Source: an uncultured Oscillospiraceae bacterium (GTDB lineage Bacteria > Bacillota > Clostridia > Oscillospirales > Oscillospiraceae). Taken from it: DNA of 37,889 nucleotides. A program made the position numbers and the translations under genes. Under the pieces are notes generated by a model. It had not been told where the DNA came from and made no database searches. It saw nothing but the letters and a program-made list of their open reading frames with translations. Shown here piece after piece: positions 1,279 to 30,666 of the stretch. The stretch lies in assembly GCA_964428625.1 (NCBI GenBank), contig CAYRYT010000001.1:1-37889 (forward strand). The letters run 5' to 3'. Positions within the stretch are counted from its first letter, which is position 1. Every line of letters starts with the position of its first letter.

Positions 1279-1737
1279 ATGGATCACAGCAAGAAAGCCG
1301 GAGAACTATTCTGCCAGGGCTATAACTGCGCCCAGGCGGTGGTGGTCGCCTTCTGCGATGTCACCGGTCTGACACCGGACTACGCTGCCCGGCTGGCCTC
1401 CTCCTTCGGCGGGGGCATGGGCCGGATGCGGGAGGTCTGCGGCGCTGTCAGCGGAATGCTCCTGGTGGCGGGGCTGCTCTATGGCTACGACACCCCGGGG
1501 GATGACACCGCCAAAAAGGCCCACTATACCCTGGTTCAGAATCTCGCCGGGGAATTCCGGAACTGCCACGGTAGCATGATCTGCCGGGAGATCCTGAAAA
1601 ATCCACCCTCCGACCCCAATCCTACGCCCCGCACGGCGGATTTCTATGCCCGGCGTCCCTGCGCCTGGATGGTCATGTCCGCCGCCGGGATTCTGGATAC
1701 CTACATTGCCGCCCATCCCCTTCCCCAAAAACCATAA
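1279..1737 (+). CDS. C-GCAxxG-C-C family putative redox-active protein
   Basis: GYNCAQAV, SFGGGMG, VCGAVSG, GSMICREI and RPC motifs; AAGGAG RBS. Confidence 0.9.
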   Translation: MDHSKKAGELFCQGYNCAQAVVVAFCDVTGLTPDYAARLASSFGGGMGRMREVCGAVSGMLLVAGLLYGYDTPGDDTAKKAHYTLVQNLAGEFRNCHGSMICREILKNPPSDPNPTPRTADFYARRPCAWMVMSAAGILDTYIAAHPLPQKP

Positions 1738-1827
1738 AAACGCCTGGTCCCGAATGCTATGTGGTCGTAAAACAGTAAAAGTGAACTGGCAAAATATTCA
1801 GAAAAACTTGATTTTATGGAGGAAACA

Positions 1828-2277
1828 ATGATTGAGATAAAGCGACTGAATGTAGAACATGTGCGTCAGATTATGCTGTTTGATAAAACTTGTTTTCCGA
1901 CTGATTTTTGGAAAGAAGAAGACTGGAAAGAACTTCTGGCAGATCCAAGAGCAATTTATTACGCTCTGCTTGACGGAGAAGAAATTGTAGGAGATGTTTT
2001 TATTTACAATTGGAAAGGCGAAAGAGACTACATAAAGATTATGAACATTGCGGTTCATGCTGATTACAGAAATCGTGGTTTGGCGCATAAGTTACTAAAT
2101 TATGTGGCAACAGAAATGAAGAAGATAGGTATGCATCGTTTTTGCGGCGAAACAAGAGCATCAAATCATGCAATGCAACATGTTTTTGCAAACTGTGGTT
2201 ACATATTAAACATGATTGAAGAGGATTATTATGATAATCCCAATGAAAGCGCCTATAAGTATGTTTTGCAAATATAA
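1828..2277 (+). CDS. GNAT N-acetyltransferase (RimI-like)
   Basis: GGAGG RBS before ATG 1828; acetyl-CoA motif IAVHADYRNRGLA and ETRASNHAMQHVF...GY...DYY. Confidence 0.9.
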   Translation: MIEIKRLNVEHVRQIMLFDKTCFPTDFWKEEDWKELLADPRAIYYALLDGEEIVGDVFIYNWKGERDYIKIMNIAVHADYRNRGLAHKLLNYVATEMKKIGMHRFCGETRASNHAMQHVFANCGYILNMIEEDYYDNPNESAYKYVLQI

Positions 2278-2409
2278 CAGCAGTGTGTTTGGCGAATTTC
2301 CATTTATCAAACAGGAATTGCGCACCTCTATACACCTTCGCATGTGGCGTATTAGGTGAGGTGCTTGACTCCCCTATGAAGGAGTCAAGGCTGCGGACTT
2401 TGCCAGATT

Positions 2410-2459
2410 AAAACAGTTTGTGGAGCGTATCAATGCCGATACGCTCCACAAACTGTTTT
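2410..2459. repeat. perfect 22-bp inverted repeat (bidirectional terminator or REP-like)
   Basis: AAAACAGTTTGTGGAGCGTATC-aatgcc-GATACGCTCCACAAACTGTTTT; core shared with 30629-30666. Confidence 0.9.
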
Positions 2460-2504
2460 TTGAACACCCACCTAAATGGGATCAGGCGTTTTATGACAGA
2501 GGTC

Positions 2505-2738
2505 TCAGATGCTGAATGCAACCAGCACAACATCCTTGCCCAGCTTGGCAGAGAGCAGCTTCTCCAGCTCGGTGATCTTGGCCAGTGCTTCCCCATCCTG
2601 GTCCAGCTCAGCGAACTTCACAGGGCTGTAGGCCACCAGGGAAACATCCTTGCCGGTCTTGGCGGTGAGCTCCTGCTCCAGCGCGGTGATAGAATTCAGC
2701 AGATCTTCCCGGCCGTTGAGATTGGTAAAAGTATTCAT
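2505..2738 (-). CDS. 77-aa hypothetical protein made of two tandem ~36-aa repeats
   Basis: AAGGAG RBS and TTGCTT-17-TGn-TATAAT promoter (2798-2770). Repeats ITALEQELTAKTGKDVSLVAYS and ITELEKLLSAKLGKDVVLVAFS. Confidence 0.8.
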   Translation of the reverse strand: MNTFTNLNGREDLLNSITALEQELTAKTGKDVSLVAYSPVKFAELDQDGEALAKITELEKLLSAKLGKDVVLVAFSI

Positions 2739-7454: not shown

Positions 7455-7673
7455 TTCGTGGCATATGCGCGACCTGCCCCCGGGCAGACACGCATAGGGC
7501 ATTCAGCTGAACAAGGGAACCCGGTGGAAATCCGGGACACGGCGGGCATGGCCCGCGGTGCTGTCAGCGTGGAGTCGGCCTCCTTTCTGGGAAACCAGGT
7601 CATTGGGCGCAAGCCTGAGAAGGCGGGAGGCGGCATTGGGAAACCTGAACACGCAAGTCAGAAGACCTACGAA
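7455..7673 (+). ncRNA. cobalamin riboswitch (second of tandem pair)
   Basis: AAGGGAA-CCCGG-TGGAAAT-CCGGG, GCTGT, GTCATTGGG...CCTGAGAAGG and B12 box AAGTCAGAAGACCT. P1 TTCGTGG/CTACGAA. Confidence 0.9.
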
Positions 7674-7786: not shown

Positions 7787-10700
7787 ATGAAAAAACGCAT
7801 TCTCTCCGCCCTTCTTGCGCTGGTGTTGGTATTCTCCGTGATGCCCGCCAGTGTTTTTGCGGAGAACATTCACGAAAATCAAGTCCGAGTGATCGTCGAA
7901 AATACTACCTTCTCCGTAGAGGACGGTGCCCCCTGGGACGGAACTCTGGTGGACACCTGGGTAGACATCGACGAAGACGCAACCATGATGACCTGCATCG
8001 TGGATGCCCTGGCCCAGTCCGACTATGAGCAGACCGGTGCGGAGTACAACTACATCTCCGAAATCAACGGTCTGAGCGAGTTTGACGGCGGCGGAATGTC
8101 CGGCTGGATGGGCACCCTGAACGATTGGTTCACCAACGAAGGCTTCGGTGCCTTCACCGTTGCCGACGGCAAACTTCTGGCCGGTGATGAGATCCGGATC
8201 ATGTACACCTGTAACGGCTTCGGTGCCGACCTGGGCGGCAGCTGGGGTAACAGCGACAAGACCGTCAAGGCTGTGGAATTCAGTGCGGGTACTCTGGATA
8301 CCGACTTTGATAAGGATACCCACGATTATACCCTCACCGTCCCCGCCGGTACCACCGAGCTGACGGTTCGCCCCACCGCCTCCAACAAGAACTACATGGT
8401 TCGCACCAAGACCGATGCCGACGATACCTGGTATCGCTGCAACGATCTGATCCCCGTGGAGATGGGCACCGTGATCACCGTTGTGTGCGGCGATTCCAGC
8501 TGGCCCTCCATGAACGACAATTCCGTTCCCGCTGAGGAGTACCGCTTCACCGTGGCCCTGGAGGGCAAGTCCGACAGCGAGCTGATCGCAGAGGTCACCG
8601 CCCGCATCGATGCCATTGGGGAAGTCACCCTGACCAGCGAGAATGCCATTCTGGCCGCCCGGGCCGCCTATGAGGCCCTGGAGCCGGAGCTGCAGGCACA
8701 GGTTACCAATTATGAAACCCTGACCGCCGCCGAAGCCGCTCTGGCCCAGCTGAAGGCCGCCAACGAATCCGTTTCCGCCCAGTGGCCCAGCTTCCGCGGC
8801 AATGCCGCCAACAACGGCGTGACCAACGCCGCCACCCCTGTGGATCTCGACACCGTGACCCTGAAGTGGAACCACTGCTTCAAGGAAAATGCCAGCGACT
8901 GGTCCACCGCCCCCAGCGTGCAGATCATCGTGGACGATGCCCTGGTGGTCATGTGCAAGACCAGCCTTTACAAGGTTGACCTGGAGACCGGCGAGATCCT
9001 CGCCACCGGCACCATGTCCGCCGCCCCCAGCTACGGCTACACTCCTCCCATTTACGCTGAGGGTATGATCATCTGCCCCCTGGGCAATGGCACCATCCAG
9101 GCCTTTGACGCGGAGACCCTGGAGTCCCTGTGGGTCTACCACGACGCTCTGGGCGGCCAGGCCCTGAGCCCCATCTCCTACTCCGGCGGCTACATCTACA
9201 CCGGCTTCTGGAACGGCGAGACCGCCGATGCCAACTTCGTCTGCGTTGCCGTCTACGACGAGGATCCCGCCTCCGCTGAGGAGGAGAAGACTGCTGTCTG
9301 GACCCACACCCAGGCCGGCGGTTATTACTGGGCCGGCTCCGTGGTCGTTGGCGATACCGTGATCGTCGGCTGCGACGATGGCAACAATGGCACCACCGGC
9401 GACTCCACCCTGACCGGCTTCAACAAGTTCTCCGGCAAGATCATCAGCCAGCTCACCCTGACCGGCATGGGCGACCAGCGCAGCTCCCTGTGCTATGCCA
9501 ACGGCTACCTGTACTTCACCACCAAGGGCGGCTACACCTGCAGGGTCGAAATCAGCGGCAACGGCCAGCTCACCGACCTGGTTTCCTTCCGCCCCGACGC
9601 AACCACCGTTCAGAGCACCTGCACCCCCGTCGTGTACGGCGGCTATGTCTACCTCGCCCTGTCCGAGAAGTCCGGCACCAGCTGGAAGGATCCCACCTTC
9701 TACACCGTCTATGTTCTGGATGCCGATACCCTGGCCGTTGCCGGTACTGCCGACATGAGCACCTACGGCTATCCCCAGTGTTCCCTGCTCCTGACCACCG
9801 CATACCAGGCCAGCGGCAACCTCTACCTGTACGCCACCTATAACAAGACCCCCGGCGGTATCGCCATGATCACCGTCCCCACCGATTCCCTCAGCGTGGA
9901 GTCCCCCGCTACCCTGACCGTGGATCACCTGTACCAGGCAGAAGGCTTTGAGCAGTACTGCATTTGCAGCGTGATCTGCGATGACAACGGCACCCTGTAC
10001 TACAAGAACGACTCCGGCAATGTCTTTGCCATCGCCACCGATCCCGTGAAGGAAGTGGAGGCCAAAATCGATGCCATTGGCGAAGTCACCCTGGACTCCC
10101 GGAAAGCCATTACCGAGGCCCGGAAGGCATACGACGCCCTGACCGAGGCTCAGCAGAGCCAGGTAACCAATGTCGATACCCTCCAGGCTGCTGAGGAGAC
10201 CTTCTCCCAACTTCTCGCCCAGTATTATAAGGATGTCTACACCACCACCGGCAATTATATGTCCACTCTGGGTACCCCCGGCGTTGGCTCCATCGGCGGT
10301 GAGTGGATGGTCCTGGGCCTGTCCCGTGCCGATCTGACTGTTCCCGGCAGCGATGCCTACTACGAAGCCGTTGTGGCGTATGTCCAGTCCCATATCAACG
10401 ACAAGGGGCAGCTCCACCGTGCCAAGTCCACGGATAACTCCCGGATCATTCTGGCCCTCACCGCTATGGGCAAGGATGTCACCGATGTGGGCGGCTTCAA
10501 CCTGCTGAACGGTCTGAACGATCTGACCTGCATCCAGAAGCAGGGCATCAACGGCCCCATCTGGGCCCTGATTGCCCTGGACAGCCACAATTATGAGATC
10601 CCTGCCGGCGATGTCACCCGGGAAAAGCTGATTGAGGTCATCCTCAAGGCCCAGCTCCCCGACGGCGGTTGGACTCTCTCCGGCAGCGTCGCTGACCCGG

Positions 10701-30628: not shown

Positions 30629-30666
30629 AACAGGGGAGCGTATCGAAACCGATACGCTCCCCTGTT
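30629..30666. terminator. bidirectional terminator / REP-like palindrome
   Basis: AACAGGGGAGCGTATCG-aaac-CGATACGCTCCCCTGTT between convergent genes. Confidence 0.85.

Follow-up and report, generated by a model that had tools for sequence, protein, structure and literature searches.

The window, that is, the whole stretch of 37,889 nucleotides that was analysed, carries a 719-bp cassette with a single gene, encoding a GNAT acetyltransferase, inside the loop of a host terminator-like hairpin. The cassette is real and recently mobile; it was very probably put into the loop of a predicted two-way terminator by a large serine recombinase (LSR) of the DUF4368 type, provided in trans by parent integrative mobilizable elements (IMEs), and its sequence makes it most likely a recombinase-less satellite of such multi-targeting serine-recombinase IMEs. 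The ends of the element, its core, the hairpin used as target, its recurrence elsewhere and the parents with an LSR beside the arm are all directly observed.

Boundaries of the cassette and the split host hairpin

The window corresponds to contig C1 of the G000 assembly, which is 78% complete. The insert lies between a gene for a C-GCAxxG-C-C family protein and a convergent 77-aa gene; it is AT-rich, as stated in the original prediction (38% GC, compared with 61% and 54% in the flanks), and ORF and domain searches of 1755-2473 agree with the earlier view that the GNAT ORF is its sole gene, with no transposase and no integrase of its own. The features, in window coordinates, are the following:

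1279..1737 (+): host flank gene, C-GCAxxG-C-C family protein (PF09719, E 6e-35)
1737..1751 (+): left arm of the split host terminator-like hairpin, left half of attB (inverted repeat, rejoined fold)
1753..1754 (+): AA crossover dinucleotide, left junction (family register; loose ends at 1753)
1755..1776 (+): left 22-bp element arm, attP half-site (arm score 26.7)
1828..2277 (+): cargo, 149-aa GNAT acetyltransferase with RimI-like fold (PF00583, E 8e-16)
2316..2333 (+): degenerate MOBQ-type oriT-like motif (3 mismatches in 18 against the parent IME motif)
2364..2389 (no strand): small hairpin (sequence; MFE and centroid fold)
2410..2459 (no strand): perfect 22-bp hairpin with T runs on both strands, predicted terminator (inverted repeat, terminator score, fold)
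2452..2473 (-): right 22-bp element arm, attP half-site (arm score 29.0)
2474..2475 (+): AA crossover dinucleotide, right junction (family alignment; loose ends behind 2475)
2478..2492 (+): right arm of the split host hairpin, right half of attB (inverted repeat)
2505..2738 (-): convergent host flank gene, 77 aa, internally repeated, no family (ORF, repeat and family searches)

The two 15-bp host arms, 1737-1751 and 2478-2492, are complementary at 14 of 15 positions, with one G-T pair, and removal of the insert does restore one host hairpin between the two convergent genes, as had been proposed: the rejoined site folds at -25.5 kcal/mol when AATG is counted once and at -25.4 kcal/mol when AA is counted once. 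Since the two values are nearly equal, folding cannot pick the junction. The ends were set by family alignment, in which a 22-bp arm stands next to an AA core; the insert first described as 718 bp at 1757-2474 is real, but its extent is corrected to 1755-2473, and its removal leaves a host loop of 5 nt. AATG is present at 1753-1756 and 2475-2478, one base out of register with the true junctions. It had been considered either a target-site duplication or a recombination core; the latter is retained, with a core of 2 bp (AA) in place of AATG, and a duplicated AATG unit is contradicted by the loose ends found in sequencing runs, which fall at 1753 and behind 2475/2476, not 2478. In the same way, the imperfect terminal inverted repeats exist as inverted ends, but consist of two 22-bp arms abutting AA. 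The left arm is identical to the two arms of the IME L396 at 14 and 16 of 22 positions, and the right arm at 16 and 17 of 22.

No Rfam family was found in the insert. The 77-aa protein (2505-2738) is composed of two 38-residue repeats and has no Pfam or NCBIfam match. Beyond it, the region 2824-2971 is a pile-up of many unrelated contigs in four runs; the stretch at about 2870-2990, upstream of cobalamin salvage genes, resembles by eye a diverged cobalamin riboswitch, and Rfam gave no match there, though it detected a cobalamin riboswitch at 7514-7668.

A family of elements with the same ends

Right ends aligned from genomes of the genus have AA directly after the 22-bp arm in 19 of 22 cases, and left ends show AA followed by the same arm inverted. 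The conserved bases of the arm are those at positions 12-22 from the core; the bases adjoining the core vary. Of 60 genomes, 22 contain matches to a core-blind arm pattern, 68 in total, compared with 7 when the pattern is reversed as a control. The right-end pattern occurs in at least 120 stretches of metagenome contigs, the estimated total being about 620. In G000, 26 arm matches were found, 15 of which adjoin AA or TT. Arm-pattern matches in viral contigs (17 and 14) nearly all lack hairpin flanks; they were treated as chance and excluded from the family counts.

Pairing of the arms, without using flanks or core and with an arm matrix trained on these same elements, yielded 46 elements of 188-10,933 bp, several of which share a site and so are not independent. 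Their cargo is varied and includes other GNATs, a glyoxalase-family protein, an alpha/beta hydrolase and unknown proteins. The same dinucleotide is found at both ends in 36 of the 46 elements, 19 of the 46 having come from a pattern that requires AA at one end; it is AA/TT in 34 of the 36 (AA/AA in the window), and the two ends differ in the other 10 pairs. Among 19 elements obtained with the core-blind pattern, 11 have a matching core and 14 a rejoined MFE <= -15. The perfect 22-bp hairpin at 2410-2459, which had been regarded as the cassette's own replacement hairpin, extends into the conserved distal portion of the right arm; it was described correctly as a hairpin, but its core is not unique, being present in 8 copies in G000 and in 28 of the 46 members.

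Additional members and remnants were seen in G000: a 661-bp element with an unknown 112-aa gene (C33:9533-10193), one of about 790 bp in which a GNAT-like gene lies in reverse orientation between AT/AA ends (C61, about 8630-9417), a gene-less copy of 167 bp (C150:1998-2164) and a lone right end (C60:128). The 12-bp-arm palindrome of the cassette also occurs with no adjoining att arm, at 30633-30662 of the window and in C11, C16, C17, C70 and C83; such copies are possibly remnants or domesticated terminators. An internal arm with AA lies about 350 bp inside the right end, before a DUF6061 gene, in L318:717 (G000 C27:16416) and in G000 C25, which suggests nested or tandem elements. A single host terminator holds three different cassettes in different samples (L095, L128 and L160; 1000, 514 and 1439 bp). 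Finally, in L093, L109, L116, L117, L119 and L142 the left and right flanks come from different sites seen elsewhere; such non-matching flanks may reflect rearrangement between copies or misassembly.

Target sites

Rejoined flanks fold at <= -15 kcal/mol in 35 of the 46 elements, a value that mismatched flank pairs reach in 14.6% and random AA sites in 21.6% of cases, and the core is located in a hairpin loop in 44 of the 46 rejoined sites. Going outward, host half-sites pass from G-rich to T-rich sequence, with a T tract in 86 of 113 (6.5% of controls), which in sequence terms is the pattern of a two-way intrinsic terminator. Re-formation of the host hairpin by the element arms at the junctions was also considered and discarded, since permuted pairs perform just as well (right end p 0.29, left end p 0.77, n 36).

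These data could also be read as loose insertion by the same LSR, with terminator loops not chosen at all and only harmless intergenic copies surviving selection. The rejoined flanks are indeed weak in 11 of the 46 elements, the attB listed for cluster 7388 of Durrant et al. 2022 is by eye not an obvious terminator, and in the available part of PMC13137831 another multi-targeting LSR is nearly random in a foreign host. However, the position of the core in the loop in 44 of 46 sites is more exact than an intergenic location would predict; moreover, G makes up 52-58% of host half-sites at positions 6-9 and is also present there in the element arms, consistent with a direct readout of sequence, and near-identical recent copies too abut A-run/GC flanks. 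Loose insertion followed by selection is thus considered unlikely, and targeting of terminator loops by the LSR is preferred.

Parent elements and the serine recombinase

Complete members of the family carry a DUF4368 LSR gene just inside one arm. A recombinase with Resolvase, Recombinase, Zn ribbon and DUF4368 domains is found inside the complete elements L396, L402, L469, L470 and L473, three of which rejoin to a strong hairpin (L402 and L469 do not). The parents L396 (8.5 kb) and L402 (10.9 kb) encode a 572-aa LSR together with DUF3847 and a MobA/MobL relaxase (PF03389); the best PDB match of the parent LSR is TnpX (2MHC, E 7e-34). Among 30 loci with LSR relatives, those with at least 58% identity have an arm ending 59-82 nt after the gene in 11 of 11 cases (scores 12.1-31.3), 3 of these having been first found through the arm and 8 not selected by it; one relative at 49% identity also has the arm after the gene, and at 45% identity or less an arm within 100 nt was found in 0 of 18. 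The cores adjoining the LSR vary (AA 6, TT 4, AT 1). The arm therefore tracks the LSR clade, as it is present in 11 of 11 close relatives and in 0 of 50 relatives of another clade. The latter belong to a 562-aa LSR in a MobV IME located about 250 bp inside the right arm in L104, L134 and L144, which had been the first candidate and was rejected on this control (relatives with at least 60% identity and at least 500 nt downstream); its IME is most likely a nested element. In L443, L447, L448 and L454, DUF4368-like LSRs of 43-45% identity are followed, at the same distance after the gene, by a different conserved motif and then by GC/T-run flanks; these more distant LSRs are possibly sister systems with arms of their own.

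In the G000 assembly, which is 78% complete, searches for the LSR and for MobA gave no match. Its contigs C71 and C80 end in a stretch of 54-55 bp that is 83-87% identical to the DNA following the LSR stop codon in L435 and L437, where the LSR is 61% identical to that of L396; both contigs break 7-8 nt short of the position of the LSR stop in the homologous ends. Rejoining of flanks gave -29.5 for C80 with C27 and -32.6 for C11 with C38, the best of 12 pairings tried, while C71 with C78 (-19.0) is no better than C71 with C27 (-19.5). The homology of contig ends and the rejoined flanks together indicate that the G000 host likely carries parent-type elements, the middles of which were lost in assembly. 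C11:23990 and C38:208 are the ends of one large element, unassembled between them, that occupies a terminator; next to the C11 end there is what resembles a TnpV fragment and the start of a phage-type DNA polymerase.

A different kind of enzyme, a DDE transposase, would be needed if the cassettes were MITEs or mobile insertion cassettes (MICs); the arms would then be terminal inverted repeats of 22 bp, and AA a target duplication of 2 bp. On sequence alone, inverted ends with a short direct repeat look the same in both cases. Ends recognized by transposases, however, have conserved terminal bases, whereas in the arms the terminal bases vary and the conserved ones lie 12-22 bp inside; in addition, no recombination enzyme but the LSR was seen immediately beside an arm, in scans where DDE families were covered unsystematically. 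A DDE transposase is accordingly very unlikely.

Movement of the cassettes by a REP-flanked DUF559 nuclease or by a RAYT/Y1 transposase is highly improbable. The DUF559 module is whole or partial in 24 of the 46 elements; yet it is bounded by its own repeats and often deleted, neither the multi-site window cassette nor L396 or L402 contains it, and no Y1_Tnp match was found in G000 (78% complete). In L093:3260-3640 and 23 other elements the DUF559 gene stands between two palindromic repeats and is gained or lost as a module.

Hardly credible, finally, is derivation from IS1111/IS110 elements guided by an RNA from the structured 3' region. The cassette does have a structured non-coding 3' region (z -6.9) and a short core, and subterminal repeats are a feature of IS1111 according to the portion of PMC11187229 available; nevertheless, the terminator hairpin and the oriT-like motif account for the structure, which has no Rfam match, the two arms mirror each other across the core, and the parents encode an LSR. 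Integron gene cassettes, which have an attC site and an IntI partner and form tandem arrays, do not fit either, as the elements stand singly in hairpins between two arms, and no match to a tyrosine integrase was found beside an arm in the loci scanned.

The mover is therefore most likely an LSR acting in trans, and not a transposase. The prediction of a non-autonomous passenger-gene element in terminator loops, mobilized in trans, is thus supported by other cargos, other sites and recombinase-bearing parents, and the search for its ends did find copies with other cargo or a recombinase in hairpin loops.

Recent movement

The same cassette, 91% identical, is present in L050 among other host genes, between terminator-like hairpin halves and with AA at both ends, and a worn copy is found in G200. 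Eight sequencing runs were examined at the contig level, and five of them (X2, X4, X5, X6 and X7) contain cassette contigs with 3-7 differences in about 700 bp and other flanks. The depth of these contigs, which is not a copy number, is 4 to more than 10 times that of the contigs with the window flanks: 46.5 vs 5.2 in X2, 21.6 vs 3.5-4.2 in X4, 38.9 vs 2-4 in X5, 19.6 vs 5.2 in X6 and 40-54 vs 3.2 in X7. Loose left ends with other flanks occur at 1747, 1748 and 1753 (the last in X6 and X7), and loose right ends behind 2475 in X2, X3, X5, X6 and X7 and behind 2476 in X5. The near-identical recent copies also adjoin A-run/GC flanks. Either several copies reside in one strain or copies reside in several strains; either way, the sequences indicate recent spread.

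Two further items of the original prediction were looked for and not seen. An empty allele, of the window site or of any other, was found neither in the eight runs nor in the fetched loci, and the 60 genomes include no close relative (best 77% identity on the flank gene); the circle junction was also not seen in the contigs of the eight runs. No host match for one metagenome site was found in sets of 5 and 400 genomes, and the cassette has no match in the plasmids or phages searched.

Cargo, transcription and oriT-like motif

The GNAT gene starts at 1828, with an in-frame ATG also at 1816 and GGAGG at 1818-1822. Its product scores 65.4 bits against TIGR01575 (RimI), below the cut-off of 86.4, its homologs are mostly of 149 aa, and matches to resistance acetyltransferases are weak only. 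None of 15 relatives with 57-74% identity is flanked by an arm pair, indicating that the cargo was picked up from elsewhere. No promoter-like site was found before the gene, and the window copy has no hairpin inside its left end; the gene is thus likely expressed by read-through from the upstream host gene. The earlier statement that the insert restores termination holds in part: terminator prediction picks the hairpin at 2410-2459 on the minus strand, and this hairpin likely replaces termination at the right end, but the left end has no counterpart.

The oriT-like motif, which the original prediction does not mention, precedes DUF3847/mobA in L396. With at most 3 mismatches it occurs in 37 of the 46 elements, and G000 has just 2 occurrences. 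Read on the opposite strand, the motif agrees with the core of the MOBQ oriT consensus given in the accessible part of PMC3832669. The window copy (2316-2333) has 3 mismatches and is altered inside the consensus core; runs X2 and X7 contain a variant one base closer. Judged by its sequence, the window motif could equally well be functional or defunct.

Proposed mechanism and relation to known systems

The chemistry of serine recombinases is established and underlies excision as a circle and re-integration; together with the precedent of TnpX, it is the basis for assigning both steps to the AA dinucleotide. The DUF4368-type LSR, supplied in trans by larger IMEs with the same ends, would recombine the two junctions at AA and free a circle, in which the joined arms would form an attP of 22+2+22. 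The circle would then integrate at a relaxed quasi-palindromic attB, made of an A run, a C-rich stretch, AA, a G-rich stretch and a T run; in these genomes such attB sites would be intrinsic terminators, chosen by sequence readout of the relaxed palindrome. More tentatively, the oriT-like motif would let the parent MobA/MobL relaxase, with a helper conjugation system, move the circle between cells.

MICs likewise hold cargo between intact ends with no enzyme of their own, and use DDE transposases. CIMEs, in the descriptions available, share this organization; however, they are decayed and moved in cis with a neighboring element, whereas the cassettes described here stand alone at many sites, with fresh copies. 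An integrase of their own, as expected of IMEs, is encoded by L396 and L402 and not by the window element, the ends of which match the att arms beside the DUF4368 LSR (14-17 of 22 identical to L396).

Multi-targeting DUF4368 LSRs of a TndX-like clade, with many unrelated targets, are listed in the available passages of Durrant et al. 2022 (PMC10083194). Their clusters 7388 and 5552 are similar to the parents, with the same domain set including DUF4368 and, by eye only, an attP in which two 22-bp arms enclose a dinucleotide and show the same distal motif; the attB of cluster 5552 is by eye an A-run/GC-stem/T-run inverted repeat. Those passages treat LSR-bearing elements only, whereas the window element encodes no recombinase; the words terminator, hairpin and palindrome have 0 matches in the main text, and "cluster6538" is not in the supplement. 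An AA-core multi-targeting integrase, MTI_6538, is mentioned in the text seen of PMC13137831, and that of the SPLASH preprint links DUF4368 to IMEs.

Tn4451/Tn4453 TnpX is described, in the part of PMC5704250 available, as a serine recombinase with 2-bp identical cores, no directionality factor, low specificity and several copies. Tn4451 thus shares with the parents a serine recombinase acting on a 2-bp core, but it encodes TnpX and a MobV relaxase, whereas the parents have MobA/MobL and the cassette has no mobility gene and belongs to a family with a core that is mostly AA. The MOBQ2 IMEs of Faecalibacterium, with DUF3847, reported in the accessible sections of Guedon et al. 2025 (PMC12084326), resemble L396 and L402 in having a PF03389 relaxase beside DUF3847; that survey searched for elements with a relaxase or integrase gene and so would miss cassettes with att sites and oriT alone, and "terminator" has 0 matches in it. 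This word is also absent from the text seen of Durrant et al. 2022, PMC13137831 and the SPLASH preprint. In the literature searched, most subscription papers being outside its scope, no description was found of terminator-loop targeting by an LSR or of mini-cassettes with att sites and oriT.

The LSR class, its form of attP, the MOBQ IMEs and the 2-bp cores are already known parts, and the window is a fresh, multi-site example that opens no new category of element. At about an even chance, gut Clostridia have a distributed cassette system, in which one LSR clade reads two-way terminators as attB and hundreds of tiny cassettes with att sites, oriT and a swappable single cargo hop within and between genomes; some, like that of the window, would be promoterless and read through from the host gene whose terminator they split. 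The finding offers a concrete and directly testable integration rule for one multi-targeting LSR clade, namely AA in the loop of a two-way terminator, and a layer of mobile cargo below 2 kb with neither recombinase nor relaxase, which is therefore missed by gene-based IME finders. For gut Clostridia, an enzyme whose sequence preference brings it to intergenic positions would make a useful integration tool, and the whole points to a mode of gene spread that has drawn little notice, in which the incoming gene settles between other genes and leaves these intact.
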